From Escherichia coli (lineage in GTDB: Bacteria > Pseudomonadota > Gammaproteobacteria > Enterobacterales > Enterobacteriaceae): 64,000 bases of DNA. Below the pieces are notes generated by a model. It saw nothing but the letters and a program-made list of their open reading frames with translations, was not told where the DNA came from and ran no database searches. Where the stretch lies: NCBI RefSeq assembly GCF_022846255.1, contig NZ_AP025682.1; one strand, written 5' to 3'. The stretch's first letter is position 1. Each line of letters starts with the position of its first letter. The position numbers were made by a program, and so were the translations under genes. Below, in pieces: positions 6,083 through 58,267 of this stretch.

Positions 6083-6652
6083 ATGAAACGACTCATTGTA
6101 GGCATCAGCGGTGCCAGCGGCGCGATTTATGGCGTGCGCTTATTACAGGTTCTGCGCGATGTCGCAGATGTTGAAACGCATCTGGTGATGAGCCAGGCCG
6201 CGCGCCAGACCTTATCTCTTGAAACGGATTTTTCCCTGCGCGAAGTGCAGGCGTTAGCTGATGTGACGCACGATGCGCGCGATATTGCTGCCAGCATCTC
6301 TTCTGGTTCTTTCCAGACGCTGGGGATGGTGATTTTACCCTGTTCAATCAAAACCCTGTCCGGCATTGTCCATAGCTATACTGATGGCTTACTGACCCGT
6401 GCGGCAGATGTGGTGCTGAAAGAGCGTCGCCCGCTGGTGCTCTGCGTGCGTGAAACACCATTGCACTTAGGCCATCTGCGTTTAATGACCCAGGCGGCAG
6501 AAATTGGTGCGGTGATTATGCCTCCCGTTCCGGCGTTTTATCATCGCCCGCAATCCCTTGATGATGTGATAAATCAGACGGTTAATCGTGTTCTTGACCA
6601 GTTTGCGATAACCCTTCCTGAAGATCTCTTTGCCCGCTGGCAGGGCGCATAA
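6083..6652 (+). CDS. ubiX: Flavin prenyltransferase UbiX
   Basis: 189-aa ORF MKRLIVGISGASGAIYG..., flavoprotein fold signature. Confidence 0.96.
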   Translation: MKRLIVGISGASGAIYGVRLLQVLRDVADVETHLVMSQAARQTLSLETDFSLREVQALADVTHDARDIAASISSGSFQTLGMVILPCSIKTLSGIVHSYTDGLLTRAADVVLKERRPLVLCVRETPLHLGHLRLMTQAAEIGAVIMPPVPAFYHRPQSLDDVINQTVNRVLDQFAITLPEDLFARWQGA

Positions 6653-6833
6653 CTCCGCTGTTGCCCTGTTTCAGGGCAATTTTGCAACCGCGATCAAATC
6701 CTCGACATTTTGTTCCTTTCGATGAATCGAAACGCTGCGATTCAACCGCCATACCTGCTATCTTCAACTCTAGGACAATAATGCAACGTCTTATTAACAT
6801 ATTTAACGTTGAATGTTACTGTTGTCGTAAAGA

Positions 6834-6850
6834 TGGCATAAGACCTGCAT
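6834..6850 (+). promoter_or_regulatory. Candidate sigma54 promoter upstream of argT
   Basis: TGGCAT-N5-CTGCAT; GG and GC at canonical -24/-12 spacing, about 68 bp upstream of argT ATG. Confidence 0.5.
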
Positions 6851-6917
6851 GAAAGAGCCTGCAAACACACAACACAATACACAACATAAAAAAGCCATTT
6901 TCACTTGAGGGTTATGT

Positions 6918-7700
6918 ATGAAGAAGTCGATTCTCGCTCTGTCTTTGTTAGTCGGTCTCTCCGCAGCGGCTTCCAGCTATGCGGCGCTACCGGAGACGGT
7001 ACGTATCGGAACCGATACCACCTATGCGCCGTTCTCATCGAAAGATGCCAAAGGTGACTTTGTTGGCTTTGATATCGATCTCGGTAACGAGATGTGCAAA
7101 CGGATGCAGGTGAAATGTACCTGGGTTGCCAGTGACTTTGACGCGCTGATCCCCTCACTAAAAGCGAAAAAAATCGACGCCATTATTTCGTCGCTCTCCA
7201 TTACCGATAAACGTCAGCAGGAGATTGCTTTCTCCGACAAGTTGTACGCCGCAGATTCTCGTTTGATTGCCGCCAAAGGTTCACCGATTCAGCCAACGCT
7301 GGATTCACTGAAAGGTAAACATGTGGGTGTGCTGCAGGGATCAACCCAGGAAGCATACGCTAACGAGACCTGGCGTAGCAAAGGCGTGGATGTGGTGGCC
7401 TATGCCAACCAGGATTTGGTTTATTCCGATCTGGCTGCAGGACGTCTGGATGCTGCGTTACAAGATGAAGTTGCTGCCAGTGAAGGATTCCTCAAGCAAC
7501 CTGCTGGTAAAGATTTCGCCTTTGCTGGCTCATCAGTGAAAGACAAAAAATACTTCGGTGACGGTACCGGTGTAGGGCTACGTAAAGATGATGCTGAACT
7601 GACGGCGGCGTTTAATAAGGCGCTTGGCGAGCTGCGTCAGGACGGTACCTACGACAAGATGGCGAAAAAGTATTTCGACTTTAATGTCTACGGTGACTGA
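6918..7700 (+). CDS. argT: Lysine/arginine/ornithine periplasmic binding protein
   Basis: 260 aa with signal peptide; paralogous to hisJ immediately downstream. Confidence 0.96.
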
Positions 7701-7758
7701 TACGTCGCAGGGAAACTGTACCTGATGGAATGATCATCATGGTGCACGCCAGGTTTGT

Positions 7759-7775
7759 TGCACTATCGTGGTGCA
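7759..7775 (+). promoter_or_regulatory. Candidate NtrC binding site upstream of hisJ
   Basis: TGCACT-ATCGT-GGTGCA (11/12 to TGCACC-N5-GGTGCA); extra GGTGCA half-site at 7741. Confidence 0.4.
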
Positions 7776-7856
7776 TTGAAATGCATACTTAAGCATTTTT
7801 AATGAAAAATAATACGTCTAACGGGGCGGGATATTTTGCCTTGATGGTCAATTTTA

Positions 7857-7872
7857 TGGCACGATAAGTGTA
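7857..7872 (+). promoter_or_regulatory. Sigma54-like -24 element upstream of hisJ, imperfect -12
   Basis: TGGCACGATAAGTGTA: perfect TGGCAC, -12 reads GT instead of GC; about 100 bp downstream of the NtrC-like site. Confidence 0.3.
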
Positions 7873-7920
7873 ACAAACCTGTAAATATTCCCTATAAAAA
7901 GACTGTCAGTTGAGGACATT

Positions 7921-8703
7921 ATGAAAAAACTGGTGCTATCGCTCTCTCTGGTTCTGGCCTTCTCCAGCGCAACTGCGGCGTTTGCTGCGATTCCGCAAAA
8001 CATCCGCATCGGTACCGATCCGACCTATGCGCCATTTGAATCAAAAAATTCACAAGGCGAACTGGTTGGCTTCGATATCGATCTGGCGAAGGAGTTGTGC
8101 AAACGCATCAATACGCAATGTACGTTTGTCGAAAACCCACTGGATGCGTTAATCCCGTCCTTAAAAGCGAAGAAGATTGACGCCATCATGTCATCGCTTT
8201 CCATTACGGAAAAACGTCAGCAAGAAATTGCCTTCACCGACAAACTGTACGCTGCCGATTCTCGTCTGGTGGTGGCGAAAAATTCCGACATTCAGCCGAC
8301 AGTCGAGTCGCTGAAAGGCAAACGGGTAGGCGTATTGCAGGGCACCACCCAGGAGACGTTCGGTAACGAACATTGGGCACCAAAAGGCATTGAAATCGTT
8401 TCTTATCAGGGGCAGGACAACATTTATTCTGACCTGACTGCCGGACGTATTGATGCCGCGTTCCAGGATGAGGTCGCTGCCAGCGAAGGTTTCCTCAAAC
8501 AACCCGTCGGTAAAGATTACAAATTCGGTGGTCCGTCTGTTAAAGATGAAAAACTGTTTGGCGTAGGGACCGGCATGGGCCTGCGTAAAGAAGATAACGA
8601 ACTGCGCGAGGCACTGAACAAAGCCTTTGCCGAAATGCGCGCTGACGGTACTTACGAGAAATTAGCGAAAAAGTACTTCGATTTTGATGTTTATGGTGGT
8701 TAA
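7921..8703 (+). CDS. hisJ: Histidine periplasmic binding protein
   Basis: 260 aa with signal peptide; followed by hisQMP. Confidence 0.96.
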
Positions 8704-8727
8704 TCGCCATCGGTGAAAGAAAGTCCG

Positions 8728-8751
8728 CTCCCTTCGGGTAACCGGAGGGAG
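8728..8751 (+). promoter_or_regulatory. hisJ-hisQ intercistronic stem-loop
   Basis: CTCCCTTCGGGTAACCGGAGGGAG inverted repeat just after hisJ stop. Confidence 0.5.
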
Positions 8752-8792
8752 ACAAGAGGCGGTAATTCACCACACACGACAGGACAGGCAGC

Positions 8793-9479
8793 ATGTTGTA
8801 TGGGTTTTCAGGTGTTATTTTACAGGGTGCGCTCGTCACGCTGGAGCTGGCTATCAGCTCTGTAGTGCTCGCTGTAATCATCGGTTTAATTGGCGCTGGC
8901 GGTAAGCTCTCGCAAAATCGGCTTTCGGGCCTTATTTTCGAAGGGTACACCACGCTGATTCGAGGCGTGCCGGACTTGGTGTTGATGCTGCTAATTTTCT
9001 ACGGTTTGCAGATTGCACTAAACACGGTGACGGAGGCGATGGGCGTCGGGCAGATTGATATTGATCCGATGGTCGCAGGTATTATCACTCTCGGTTTTAT
9101 CTACGGTGCTTACTTTACCGAAACGTTCCGTGGCGCGTTTATGGCTGTGCCGAAAGGGCATATAGAGGCGGCGACGGCGTTCGGTTTTACTCGTGGGCAA
9201 GTGTTTCGGCGGATTATGTTTCCGGCGATGATGCGTTACGCTCTGCCAGGCATTGGCAACAACTGGCAGGTGATTCTCAAATCTACCGCTTTGGTTTCGT
9301 TACTCGGCCTGGAAGATGTGGTCAAAGCCACGCAGCTGGCAGGCAAAAGTACCTGGGAACCGTTCTATTTCGCTATCGTCTGCGGCGTGATTTACCTGGT
9401 TTTCACCACCGTTTCCAATGGTGTGCTGCTGTTCCTTGAGCGCCGCTACTCCGTGGGTGTGAAGAGGGCTGACTTGTGA
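8793..9479 (+). CDS. hisQ: Histidine ABC transporter permease
   Basis: 228-aa polytopic membrane ORF. Confidence 0.96.
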   Translation: MLYGFSGVILQGALVTLELAISSVVLAVIIGLIGAGGKLSQNRLSGLIFEGYTTLIRGVPDLVLMLLIFYGLQIALNTVTEAMGVGQIDIDPMVAGIITLGFIYGAYFTETFRGAFMAVPKGHIEAATAFGFTRGQVFRRIMFPAMMRYALPGIGNNWQVILKSTALVSLLGLEDVVKATQLAGKSTWEPFYFAIVCGVIYLVFTTVSNGVLLFLERRYSVGVKRADL

Positions 9480-51586: not shown

Positions 51587-52341
51587 TCCTGCACGCGCAG
51601 GCAAAACACGGTAAACCAGGTTTACCCTGGCTGGTGTTTTTGCACGGTTTTTCCGGCGATTGCCATGAATGGCAAGAAGTGGGTGAGGCGTTTGCCGACT
51701 ACTCACGGTTGTATGTTGATCTCCCAGGTCACGGTGGTTCGGCGGCGATTAGCGTCGATGGATTTGATGATGTCACCGACTTACTGCGTAAAACCTTAGT
51801 TAGTTACAACATCCTTAACTTCTGGCTGGTGGGGTACTCGCTTGGCGGACGGGTGGCGATGATGGCCGCTTGCCAGGGGCTGGCGGGGCTTTGTGGGGGT
51901 GTTGTCGAAGGCGGGCATCCGGGGCTGCAAAATGCTGAACAACGTGCGGAACGTCAGCGTTCCGATCGCCAATGGGCGCAGCGTTTTCGCTCAGAACCGT
52001 TAACAGCGGTGTTTACCGACTGGTATCAACAGCCTGTTTTTGCCTCGCTCAATGACGATCAACGCCGGGAGCTGGTGGCGCTGCGCAGCAACAATAATGG
52101 CGCAACCCTTGCCGCCATGCTGGAGGCGACTTCTCTCGCCGTCCAGCCCGATTTACGTGCTAACCTTAGCGCCCGCACATTTGCGTTTTATTATTTATGT
52201 GGTGAACGTGACAGCAAATTCCGCGCCCTGGCGGCGGAACTGGCTGCCGACTGCCATGTCATTCCTCGCGCCGGACATAACGCGCATCGGGAAAATCCCG
52301 CTGGCGTAATCGCAAGTCTGGCGCAGATCTTGCGTTTCTGA
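51583..52341 (+). CDS. menH: SHCHC synthase (alpha/beta hydrolase)
   Basis: 252 aa; GYSLGG nucleophile elbow; 4-nt overlap with menD. Confidence 0.95.
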
Positions 52342-56618: not shown

Positions 56619-58267
56619 TTGGGACGATACTGAATCAGCACCAGACGCTCCTGACGATCGATGGCATCTGCGGGCGGAATGGCGAGACTGTTGATATCTT
56701 CATTGCGGTCAACCGAAAGCACGAGTGTAATAATCCCCTCCTGACGATGTTGATTAAGCCAGTTTGCGAACTCATCACCGCTGACAAATCTCCCTTTCGC
56801 ATCCGGATAATTAAGGCCGTATTTCAACTCACCTGTCTGGCGATACATGATGATGTCATCGCGTTGCAGGCTCCATGCCAGACCTGCGGCAACACCGACG
56901 CTATCAGTAAGAATATAGCGGCTTGGCTGAAGTGATTCTTGTGTCATCTCGACAAAAAATTGCGGATGTTTTCCTTCCATGACTCTGTCAGGAATTGAAA
57001 ATCCTACCAGCAACGCCAGCCCCAGCGGGCAAAGCGCGGCAAAAGACCAGGTCTTTTCGACGTTTGTTAAGGTGTACCAGCCGAAAAATGCCCATAGCGA
57101 AAAAATCGACCAGGCACAAAAGACTTTATAGCTCTCGAAGGTTTGCCACACCGGCGTGTTCATTGCTCCCCAGGGGGAGACCACAAATGTGGCAATAATG
57201 CCAGTGACGCCAAAAGCGATGTTAATCCAGCCATTAATCCGCAACGCCAGAGGATTATTTTTTGCTGCCAGCAAAGCGTAATGCGCCATCAGCATTGCCA
57301 GAGGAGCAAAGCAAGAAAGAATATAGGTGGGCAATTTGCCTTTGGCGACGGAGAAAAACAACAGCGGCATTATCGTCCAGCTCAACAAATAGACGGTTGC
57401 GGAATGCTTGCGGTTTTTCCAGCCTGCGTACAGTGCTCCGGGGAGTAATCCCAGCCACGGCAGGCTACCGGCAATGATGACCGGCAAGTAGTACCAGAAC
57501 GGAGCTCTATGCTGAGCATCATCCATTGCAAAGCGTTGAATATGCTCAACCCAGAAAAAATAGTGCCAGAAGTCAGGCTCCCGCTGCGCTATCGCCAGTC
57601 CCCAGGGGAGAACCGTCAGTACGCAACTGATGACCGCCAGCCAGCCGTAAATAAAGAGATCTTTCCAGCGTTTTTGCGTTGTAACCCATGGAAGCACGCT
57701 TAATACCGGCACGGCAAGGGCGAGAAAACCTTTGGTCATCACCCCCATGCCGCAGGTGATTCCCAGCAGTAAAAATCCTGCGCTTTTGCCTTTCCACGTC
57801 TGTGCCTGCATTGCCAGCCAGAAGCTGCACATTCCCGCCACCAGCCAGAAGGCAATAAACGGATCGAGCACGGCATAAGTGCCGATGGCATAGACAATGA
57901 ACAATGAGAGGTAAATCACTGCGGCGAGTAATGCCAGACGTTTATCGCGCCATAAGCGCAGAGTAAACCAGGTCACCAGCGCGGCAGTTAACAGGGTCGC
58001 AAAGATAACGCCTGCCCGCACACCAAAGTTATTCGCGCCAAATAGCCATTGCCCAATGCTGTTAATCCAGTATCCGGCAATGGGTTTTTCGAAATAACGT
58101 AGTCCTAACAGATGGGGAACAATCCAGTCGCCGGATGCCAGCATTTCCCGACTGATTTCCGCATAACGCGTTTCATCGGGTTGCCAGAGCAGACGCGTGC
58201 TGATCGGTAACAGGTAATAGCAGGCAATAAATGCGAAGAGGCCGATAAGGTAACGTACCGATTTCAT
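56615..58267 (-). CDS. arnT: Undecaprenyl-phosphate-L-Ara4N:lipid A transferase
   Basis: 550-aa polytopic glycosyltransferase. Confidence 0.96.

Follow-up and report, generated by a model that had tools for sequence, protein, structure and literature searches.

The hisJQMP control region of Escherichia coli: NtrC sites, an ArgR operator and a sigma-70 promoter, with a sigma-54-like element that is probably a relic

Introduction

Does the hisJQMP operon of Escherichia coli possess a nitrogen-regulated, sigma-54-dependent promoter of its own? The question is raised by the spacer between argT and hisJ. A first-pass annotation had described there a near-consensus NtrC site, an additional GGTGCA half-site and, about 100 bp downstream, a TGGCAC -24 element with an unusual -12, and had tentatively suggested that hisJ itself uses sigma-54 at this position. 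The counterpart of this region in Salmonella, dhuA, has been under study since 1985, and the hisJ NtrC site, the sigma-54-like sequence and the sigma-70/ArgR promoter are all already in the literature. The hisJQMP control region is a composite, already characterised one, and corresponds to dhuA of Salmonella.

The window, i.e. the whole stretch of 64,000 nucleotides analysed here, is E. coli chromosome, with the gene order ubiX-argT-hisJQMP. It is colinear with MG1655 across positions 6609–8809, with zero indels, and is identical to it in sequence from 7716 to 7921, so that published MG1655 coordinates transfer exactly. The hisJ ORF spans residues 7921–8703, its ATG at 2426788 corresponding to position 7921 of the window. 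On direct reading, the start codon (7921–7923, plus strand) is preceded by a conserved Shine-Dalgarno sequence, GAGGA (7912–7916). A search of positions 6500–9000 against Rfam returned no match, and a terminator scan returned just a weak 5-bp hairpin (7815–7828), which I rejected as a terminator since such hairpins occur at chance frequency.

Results

I confirmed the NtrC sites by reading the sequence and by pattern search, and both the near-consensus site and the additional half-site were found where they had been described. The main dyad, TGCACTATCGTGGTGCA (7759–7775), has one mismatch to TGCACC-N5-GGTGCA. The pattern TGCACY-N5-GGTGCA has one exact match in the 64 kb, for 0.04 expected, and only 3 of 100 shuffled sequences gave any; the dyad exceeds chance, and is a real, conserved site. 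The half-site (7730–7746) has its right half, GGTGCA, at 7741–7746, and its centre lies 29 bp from that of the main dyad. A further, degenerate NtrC-like site, TGTACC-N5-GAATGA (7717–7733), retains the left half alone, and its Citrobacter and Salmonella orthologues, at the equivalent position, read TGCACC-N5-GGGTAA. The multiple sites looked for as a basis for NtrC oligomerisation are therefore present, as a dyad, a half-site 29 bp away and a degenerate site.

This arrangement is conserved across 80 Enterobacteriaceae spacers, the main dyad showing 0–3 mismatches among genera, and the GGTGCA of the half-site is almost invariant in 45 representative spacers. The ∼29-bp spacing recurs across other genera, whose orthologous regions have two to three sites with 29- and 22-bp spacings. 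In nitrogen-starved E. coli, published NtrC ChIP-seq places a peak at 2424941–2425021 (U00096.2), assigned to hisJQMP, with 23.7-fold enrichment, compared to 5.4-fold at argT. This interval maps to positions 7710–7790 of the window and covers all the sites described above, the degenerate one included, although peak calls in this data set may sit ∼150 bp from known sites, as for glnA. NtrC is thus bound at 7759–7775 in nitrogen-starved cells, as the first-pass annotation had expected. In the gSELEX screen with NtrC alone, which picked up just 7 known targets, the spacer is apparently unlisted, as judged from the positions of text matches to hisJ. The spacer NtrC sites are present in every genus, including those with a destroyed -12, and their occupancy and conservation argue for a present-day function, which a sigma-70 model leaves unspecified.

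The sigma-54-like element was also as described, with TGGCAC at 7857 and GT instead of GC at the -12. It reads TGGCACGATAAGTGTA (7857–7872), i.e. GG-N10-GT, the GG being at 7858–7859 and the GT, in place of the GC of GG-N10-GC, at 7870–7871. The proposed geometry is likewise correct, since the dyad centre (7767) is 90 bp 5' of TGGCAC, and at about -116 from a putative sigma-54 start near 7883. To score the element, a weight matrix was built from 135 ChIP-seq sigma-54 sites. With this matrix ATGGCACGATAAGTGTA (7856–7872, plus strand) obtains 11.1 bits, which ranks 20th among 127,968 window positions and corresponds to the 11th percentile of the real sites; 19 other positions in the 64 kb equal or exceed this score. 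The bare -24/-12-like pattern is at chance level, with 51 matches (at most two mismatches) against 45.5 expected. A T at that -12 position is found in 4 of the 135 real sites. GT occurs at the -12 of the genuine sites pspA, pspG, ygeW and dcuD, and hydN has GTGAA. By sequence alone, the hisJ element falls within the range of genuine sigma-54 sites.

Occupancy data give a different picture. Binding of sigma-54 holoenzyme as a closed complex does not depend on the activator. The hisJ site is absent from the 135 high-stringency and 149 low-stringency sigma-54 ChIP-seq sites of non-starved E. coli cells, and from the in vitro RpoN gSELEX tables, whether NtrC was added or not; in the ChIP-seq at both stringencies and in the gSELEX, the argT site is the only one from this locus. 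All sigma-54 occupancy and start-site data used here are from nitrogen-replete or non-starved cells. Neither Zhao 2010 nor the main text of Cho 2014 mentions hisJ. Searching both strands near the NtrC peak for another sigma-54 motif gave a best score of 8.4 bits (7736–7752, minus strand), which is not credible. The NtrC peak itself sits on the NtrC sites, at -133 from the would-be sigma-54 start, compared to offsets of -40 to +29 (mean -0.7, sd 23.8) at 13 validated NtrC/sigma-54 promoters.

SMRT-Cappable-seq places the transcription start of hisJQMP at 2426837 (NC_000913.3), which corresponds to position 7872 of the window (plus strand) and to a 49-nt 5' UTR. In these non-starved data, the start coincides with the final base of the putative -12, and does not lie ∼12 nt downstream of it, as expected (∼7883) for sigma-54. 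TGGCACGAT (7857–7865, plus strand), overlapping TGGCAC, is therefore the extended -10 of a sigma-70 promoter, hisJp, with TG at 7857–7858, a G, and CACGAT at 7860–7865. The corresponding -35, TTGCCT (7836–7841, plus strand), is found in 53 of the 61 orthologues that share the sigma-70 frame. The promoter has an A at -11, a T at -7 and TG at -15/-14, and its 18-bp spacer is within the permitted 16–19 bp. The ArgR operator (7780–7818) consists of two 18-bp ARG boxes, at 7780–7797 and 7801–7818, separated by 3 bp, the second ending 17 bp before the -35. This pair is the best in the spacer, with a score of 24/32 that just two positions in the 64 kb reach, and the ARG-box block is conserved across genera. 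The placement of boxes and -35 agrees with the published description by the Charlier laboratory of PhisJ, a mapped sigma-70, ArgR-regulated promoter with its operator 17 bp upstream of the -35. In addition, gSELEX with the RpoD holoenzyme gives a peak within the argT/hisJ spacer. The Cappable-seq supplements hold no entry for the hisJ locus. A generic sigma-70 scan of positions 6600–8900 called no promoter, because CACGAT matches only 3 of the 6 consensus bases; I did not count this against a sigma-70 promoter, hisJp being explained by the mapped start together with the TG of the extended -10.

The conservation of TGGCAC can be attributed to this promoter, because the motif provides the TG and the opening bases of the -10 of hisJp. 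Among the 61 sigma-70-frame orthologues, the TG is found in all 61, as are the A and T at positions 2 and 6 of the -10. GC at the -12 is found in 44 of them (72%) and TGC in 29. In a set of 75 orthologues, GG is present in 75 of 75, GC in 57 and TGC in 40, so the -24 and -12 are not conserved jointly. It may be noted that GC at the -12 in 72% of the sigma-70-frame orthologues is more than drift alone might leave.

Expression data also point away from sigma-54. In published RNA-seq, from cells that were not nitrogen-starved, hisJ is highly expressed when rpoN is absent, with RPKM values of 651–703, compared to 109 with rpoN (∼6-fold up). This rise parallels that of the ArgR regulon (artJ 8–10-fold, argA 4–5-fold, argD 6.7-fold), and hisJ co-varies with artJ, argA, argD and argI, which is ArgR-type behaviour. 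Occlusion of hisJp by sigma-54 was considered as the cause of this increase and rejected, since the whole ArgR regulon goes up similarly.

The use of sigma-54 by hisJ is therefore not supported in E. coli, given the start at 7872, the lack of sigma-54 occupancy and the unconserved -12 GC. Of the first-pass reading, the NtrC part is supported, and the architecture probably descends from an NtrC/sigma-54 module, but an active sigma-54 promoter of hisJ is not supported in E. coli. The sigma-54-like element is probably a relic or a cryptic promoter.

The upstream gene differs in this respect. The argT sigma-54 promoter, ATGGCATAAGACCTGCA (6833–6849, plus strand), is a validated NtrC/sigma-54 promoter, listed as ChIP-seq site OS22; it scores 13.7 bits, and its GG/GC is intact in 80 of 80 orthologous loci. 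Upstream of it are two degenerate NtrC remnants, at 6633–6649 and 6662–6678, 29 bp apart. In Escherichia these have 5 (counted by eye) and 4 mismatches respectively, compared to 0–2 in other genera. The spacer NtrC cluster is ∼0.9 kb from the argT promoter, and full-length argT-hisJQMP transcripts are known to exist.

Discussion

The reading that I favour, and hold to be the probable one, is that NtrC sites (7717–7775), the ArgR operator and the sigma-70 promoter hisJp stand in series upstream of hisJ, the sigma-54-like element being a leftover. Basal, arginine-repressible expression of hisJQMP would come from hisJp, while nitrogen control would most likely reach hisJQMP mainly by read-through from the NtrC/sigma-54-dependent argT promoter. 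The NtrC sites of the spacer would have ceased to drive a sigma-54 promoter locally. As it stands this finding matters little, the sigma-54 reading having already been questioned for Salmonella.

Three other readings would give the NtrC sites a function, the least unlikely being that hisJp overlaps a weak sigma-54 promoter, TGGCAC-N5-GTGTA, that is fired only in nitrogen starvation, by phosphorylated NtrC oligomerising on the sites at about -116 and -145, in which case hisJQMP would have an Ntr promoter of its own. The geometry is canonical and resembles that of glnAp2, NtrC is strongly bound in nitrogen-starved cells, and hisJQMP is reported to be up-regulated under that condition. Real sites accept GT at the -12 or G at the -15 (pspA, pspG, hydN), and the 11 bits of the element exceed the scores of some bound sites, namely potF (10.2) and chaC (8.6). 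Overlapping sigma-70 and sigma-54 promoters are known from glmY and glmZ, and the homologous elements of Citrobacter, Kluyvera, Franconibacter and Buttiauxella come close to consensus, with 16–18 bits. Nevertheless, I consider this promoter unlikely. The element gives no ChIP-seq signal at either stringency, and none in the RpoN gSELEX even when NtrC is added. The mapped start is incompatible with it, the NtrC peak is not shifted onto it as it is at the 13 real targets, and hisJ expression goes up without rpoN. The NtrC sites survive in lineages where the -12 is destroyed. Finally, the better-matching Salmonella orthologue is annotated as inactive and is missing from the main-text ChIP-chip table discussed below.

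It is somewhat less likely again that the spacer cluster, lacking a sigma-54 partner of its own in Escherichia, is a downstream enhancer that loops over ∼0.9 kb to the argT promoter, and that it would partly stand in for decayed argT-upstream sites in Escherichia, Salmonella and Citrobacter. Within the gene cluster, only the spacer is a strong NtrC locus, the 5.4-fold argT peak being manually added and centred on the argT promoter, which is itself intact in all 80 loci. The argT-upstream remnants have 3–5 mismatches in Escherichia, Salmonella and most Citrobacter, and Enterobacter, Klebsiella, Cedecea and Buttiauxella retain these sites with 0–2. NtrC reportedly acts over kilobase distances, also from downstream, in work attributed to Reitzer and Magasanik in 1986. 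Yet an argTp-lacZ fusion at the lac locus (fusion boundaries not given) still answered glnK deletion, by 2.4-fold compared to 3.2-fold for the native mRNA, and the degenerate argT-upstream sites, at their canonical 29-bp spacing, could suffice at high levels of phosphorylated NtrC. The spacer sites are retained as well in genera whose argT-upstream sites are good, which does not fit a simple replacement. More doubtful still is a direct effect of NtrC on the sigma-70 promoter from beside the ArgR operator, for example by hindering the ArgR hexamer so that arginine cannot shut off hisJQMP when nitrogen is scarce. The main dyad and ARG box 1 are 4 bp apart, and in other genera a third NtrC site occupies the gap up to the ARG box. 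ArgR represses PhisJ weakly, from an unusual upstream position and via DNA conformation, and such an interplay would account for the conservation of the NtrC sites independently of the -12. Against this, the NtrC sites adjoin the ARG boxes without overlapping them, and direct evidence for the interplay was not found. NtrC is not known to act otherwise than by activating sigma-54 promoters or by repressing through promoter overlap. That the motifs co-occur by chance, with no biological meaning, can be practically discounted: the -24/-12-like pattern alone is at chance frequency, but for the NtrC site chance is refuted by the expectation of 0.04, the conservation in ∼80 species and the occupancy in vivo.

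Under the preferred serial arrangement, a conserved and strongly occupied NtrC cluster without a demonstrable local sigma-54 promoter is a candidate 'orphan' enhancer. The question of its role then lies between activation of the distant argT promoter, interplay with ArgR, and conditional firing of a cryptic promoter.

The closest comparison is with Salmonella dhuA (hisJ). The NtrC site of Ferro-Luzzi Ames and Nikaido 1985, as relayed by secondary citation, lies at the orthologous position between argT and hisJ. The NtrC dyad, the ARG-box block, TTTGCC and TGGCACGATA follow in the same order as in E. coli, and the matching TGGCACGATAG.. element was formerly predicted to be an ntr-type promoter, according to the same indirect source. 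Unlike E. coli, which has GTGTA, Salmonella keeps GC at the -12 (TCGCA or CCGCA), and its dyad is ∼16–17 bases further from the ARG boxes; the Escherichia spacer is without ∼31 bp found in most other genera. A footnote of Samuels 2013 nevertheless describes the Salmonella orthologue, TGGCACGATAGTCGCA, as 'not an active promoter', the 1985 evidence for this being cited there at second hand, and neither the ChIP-chip nor the microarray table in the main text of that study, which covers non-starved cells, lists the Salmonella hisJ orthologue.

Other systems share individual features with the hisJ region. Like hisJ, glnAp2 has two NtrC sites ∼30 bp apart and ∼110–145 bp 5' of TGGCAC (-140 and -108 at glnAp2), but it is sigma-54-bound (fold-above-threshold 21) with the NtrC summit on the promoter, whereas the hisJ summit is on the NtrC sites. 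Both sigma-70 elements and a -24/-12 motif occupy one stretch of DNA at glmY and glmZ, and both sets are intact in Citrobacter-type hisJ spacers; glmY, however, shows very strong sigma-54 binding (fold-above-threshold 200), whereas E. coli hisJ supports the sigma-70 half only. The pspA promoter, TTGGCACGCAAATTGTA, has GT replacing GC at the -12 as in hisJ, and so does pspG. In contrast to hisJ, these two have T at -15, are ChIP-seq-bound (fold-above-threshold 21 and 15, respectively) and score ∼15–16 bits, compared to 11.

The orthologous hisJ elements score between -9 and 18 bits with the sigma-54 matrix, and several genera have a consensus sigma-54 promoter at the position homologous to the hisJ element. 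An ancestral NtrC/sigma-54 module, which Buttiauxella, Shimwellia and Citrobacter still have intact, has probably left the E. coli element as a relic. I infer that the hisJ module most likely came into being together with the argT/hisJ tandem duplication, as an NtrC enhancer with a sigma-54 promoter, a state that would persist in Buttiauxella, Shimwellia, Mangrovibacter and Dryocola. A sigma-70 promoter and an ArgR operator are superimposed on the module in most other genera, with the -12 intact or not, and in Escherichia the -12 GC would have become GT, with sigma-54 holoenzyme binding no longer detectable. The locus looks like a clear comparative case of a sigma-54 promoter overwritten by a sigma-70 one, the -24 TGGCAC being reused as an extended -10.

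The argT promoter region is of the same make-up as that of its paralogue, with two NtrC-type sites 29–30 bp apart followed by TGGCA(T/C)-N..-GC. The two differ in that the sigma-54-bound argT promoter keeps GG/GC throughout, whereas the hisJ element varies widely in score and lies under a sigma-70 promoter and an ArgR operator. In Dryocola, the hisJ element, TGGCATAAAACCTGCA, almost equals that of argT, TGGCATAAGACCTGCA.

Sequence elements of the argT-hisJ spacer

The chromosomal gene order in the window is purF-ubiX-argT-hisJQMP on the + strand, with argT at 6918-7700 and hisJ at 7921-8703. MG1655 is colinear with the window over 6609-8809 and identical over 7716-7921, and published coordinates can therefore be mapped exactly. 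Direct reading of the sequence confirms all the motifs named in the first-pass annotation, namely an NtrC half-site (GGTGCA, 7741-7746), an NtrC dyad (TGCACTATCGTGGTGCA, 7759-7775) and a -24/-12-like element (TGGCACGATAAGTGTA, 7857-7872). In 64 kb, only the dyad matches TGCACY-N5-GGTGCA exactly (0.04 expected), and the bare -24/-12-like pattern is found at chance frequency (51 matches with up to two mismatches, 45.5 expected).

The mapped hisJ promoter

Work from the Charlier laboratory assigns hisJQMP transcription to a sigma-70 promoter (hisJp) under weak ArgR repression, with two ARG boxes 17 bp upstream of the -35 element. The operon start identified by SMRT-Cappable-seq (2426837, NC_000913.3) corresponds to window position 7872. 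Counting back from this start on the + strand yields a -10 element, CACGAT, at 7860-7865, and an extended -10 TG (-15/-14) at 7857-7858; an 18-bp spacer separates the -10 from a -35 element, TTGCCT, at 7836-7841. The best pair of ARG boxes in the region (7780-7797 and 7801-7818) stops exactly 17 bp before TTGCCT, and the spacer also has a peak for RpoD holoenzyme in gSELEX. On this geometry, the TGGCAC read as a "perfect -24" supplies the TG and the opening bases of the extended -10. The mapped start coincides with the final base of the putative -12 element, whereas a sigma-54 start would be near 7883; it is not compatible with the sigma-54 hisJ promoter proposed in the first-pass annotation.

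Sigma-54 scoring, occupancy and dependence

I scored the window with a sigma-54 weight matrix trained on 135 motif-bearing ChIP-seq sites (Bonocora et al., 2015). The hisJ element obtains 11.1 bits (rank 20 of 127,968 window positions), at the 11th percentile of the leave-one-out scores of real sites, and the validated argT promoter (6833-6849) obtains 13.7 bits. The GT at -12 is not disqualifying, since the pspA, pspG, ygeW and dcuD sigma-54 sites also carry it (Bonocora et al., 2015). A score matched by ∼20 positions per 64 kb is no evidence by itself. Other high scores in the window are at 52318-52334 (15.4 bits), 480-496 (14.2 bits) and, on the minus strand, 56865-56881 (CTGGCATGGAGCCTGCA, 14.4 bits), identical in sequence to the published intragenic site IS28 in arnT.

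No hisJ site is present among the 135 high-stringency E. coli sigma-54 ChIP-seq sites, where argT is listed (OS22), or in the supplementary tables holding 149 low-stringency sites, and the gSELEX tables for RpoN holoenzyme, with and without NtrC, contain only the argT-upstream peak for this cluster. In Salmonella, TGGCACGATAGTCGCATC (STM2354, hisJ) was part of a training set (Samuels et al., 2013), where a footnote marks it as inactive, and the main-text microarray and ChIP-chip tables of that study hold no STM2354 entry. In published RNA-seq tables (Schaefer et al., 2015), hisJ without rpoN is ∼6-fold above its level with rpoN, and genes of the ArgR regulon rise alongside it (artJ 8-10x, argA 4-5x, argD 6.7x, argI 3.3x). 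Transcription of hisJ therefore has no need of sigma-54 and follows the pattern of an ArgR target. In E. coli, hisJ probably has no working sigma-54 promoter; the sigma-54 occupancy and start-site data come from non-starved cells, and a cryptic promoter may therefore fire in starvation only.

NtrC binding and peak position

In nitrogen-starved E. coli, an NtrC ChIP-seq peak assigned to hisJQMP (2424941-2425021, U00096.2; 23.7-fold) maps to 7710-7790, right on top of the NtrC sites, and a 5.4-fold argT peak, added by eye, covers the argT promoter (Brown et al., 2014). The NtrC half of the original reading is therefore correct, and was already known. Ferro-Luzzi Ames and Nikaido reportedly described an NtrC-binding site in 1985 and defined a consensus; I take this site to be that of dhuA, the Salmonella hisJ regulatory region.

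I compared NtrC peak centres with predicted sigma-54 starts at the 13 loci common to Table 1 of Brown et al. (2014) and Table 1 of Bonocora et al. (2015). The centres lie between -40 and +29 bp (mean -0.7, sd 23.8); at glnA, strong NtrC sites are confirmed at -108 and -140, yet the called peak is at +29. At hisJ, the centre falls at -133 relative to the start that a hypothetical sigma-54 promoter would have, which is 5.6 sd off this distribution; it lies over the NtrC sites, not TGGCAC. By this empirical positional effect, hisJ is unlike an engaged NtrC/sigma-54 promoter.

The glnA peak is ∼140-170 bp off its NtrC sites, and across the 13 loci peaks centre on the sigma-54 start, not the enhancers, possibly because looped NtrC is crosslinked to polymerase at the promoter.

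Comparison across Enterobacteriaceae

I aligned the spacers of 80 Enterobacteriaceae loci in which argT-hisJ synteny is conserved. Blocks of conservation cover the GGTGCA half-sites and the ARG boxes, as well as TTTGCCTTG and ATGGCACGATA. Of the distinct spacers, 61 have TTG at the -35 position (sigma-70 frame); in these, the TG of the extended -10 and the A/T of the -10 are invariant (61/61), TTGCCT is found in 53, the -12 GC in 44 and TGC in 29. The 14 spacers lacking this TTG mostly contain consensus sigma-54 promoters (GC in 13/14), and the argT sigma-54 promoter has GG/GC in 80/80 loci. The hisJ-homologous element scores 17.5-18.3 bits in Buttiauxella, 17.1 in Shimwellia and Mangrovibacter, mostly 15.9-16.9 in Citrobacter (12.6 in C. 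sedlakii), 11-14 in Salmonella, 11.0 in Escherichia, where GTGTA is common to all members examined, below 7 in most Enterobacter and Leclercia, and 5.1 in K. pneumoniae. The simplest reading of these alignments is that an ancestral NtrC-enhancer/sigma-54 module was duplicated along with argT/hisJ, that in most lineages a sigma-70 promoter and ArgR operator were laid over it, and that the -12 half would then have decayed repeatedly.

Set against the spacers of comparison loci L006-L081, Escherichia spacers are missing ∼31 bp (about three helical turns) at 7776-7779. In many other genera this stretch, which separates ARG box 1 from the main dyad, contains a third NtrC-type site (e.g., TGCACCATATTGG..). 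In loci L054, L065, L075, L079, L081 and others, NtrC sites 2 and 3 are spaced 22 bp, at ∼-172 from the hisJ ATG. Read as a sigma-54 -24/-12 motif, their GGTGCA-N5-TGCACC junction reaches 10-17 bits (e.g., TTGGTGCAAAAATTGCA, 17.2 bits) in lineages whose TGGCAC element lost its -12; this match may be a mere by-product of NtrC half-site similarity. The spacers of Cedecea and relatives (L051, L052, L055, L059; 163-193 bp) are devoid of the ARG-box, -35 and TGGCAC blocks, and retain an NtrC dyad ∼82-109 bp before the hisJ ATG.

Possible roles of the NtrC sites

The hisJ control region as a whole is already known; it raises the modest question of what a conserved enhancer does once its local promoter is lost. 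No lineage has lost the NtrC sites, even where the -12 is destroyed, and the sites are strongly occupied, which suggests a present-day function. Full-length argT-hisJQMP transcripts exist (SMRT-Cappable-seq), so read-through from argTp, the argT sigma-54 promoter, can supply nitrogen control of hisJQMP. Escherichia, Salmonella and Citrobacter have degenerate NtrC sites upstream of argT, whereas these sites are good elsewhere; the spacer sites, 0.9 kb downstream of argTp, might therefore act on that promoter. However, an argTp-lacZ fusion moved to lac is still Ntr-responsive, and the spacer sites are also retained in genera whose argT sites are good. Interplay with ArgR at hisJ is another possible role, as the dyad ends 4 bp from ARG box 1.

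Other features of the locus

A terminator-like hairpin (TTGCCCTGTTTCAGGGCAATTTT, 6660-6682) lies just past the ubiX stop codon and coincides with the 4-mismatch remnant of an argT upstream NtrC site; Escherichia, Salmonella and Citrobacter all conserve it. The published argT starts from non-starved cells (2427937 and 2427879) map to 6772 and 6830, both ahead of the sigma-54 element (6833-6849) and the second only just so, in agreement with a report of bound sigma-54 repressing argT sigma-70 transcription. SMRT-Cappable-seq gives argT-only transcripts a 3' end labelled "novel" (2426826, NC_000913.3), which maps to 7883, 11 nt beyond the hisJ start and exactly at the predicted sigma-54 start position, with no hairpin and U-tract upstream of it. 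For argT-hisJ transcripts, the 3' end in the literature (2425955) corresponds to 8754. The hisJ-hisQ gap contains a GC-rich inverted repeat (8713-8775), which is probably the REP or intercistronic stabiliser element already known.
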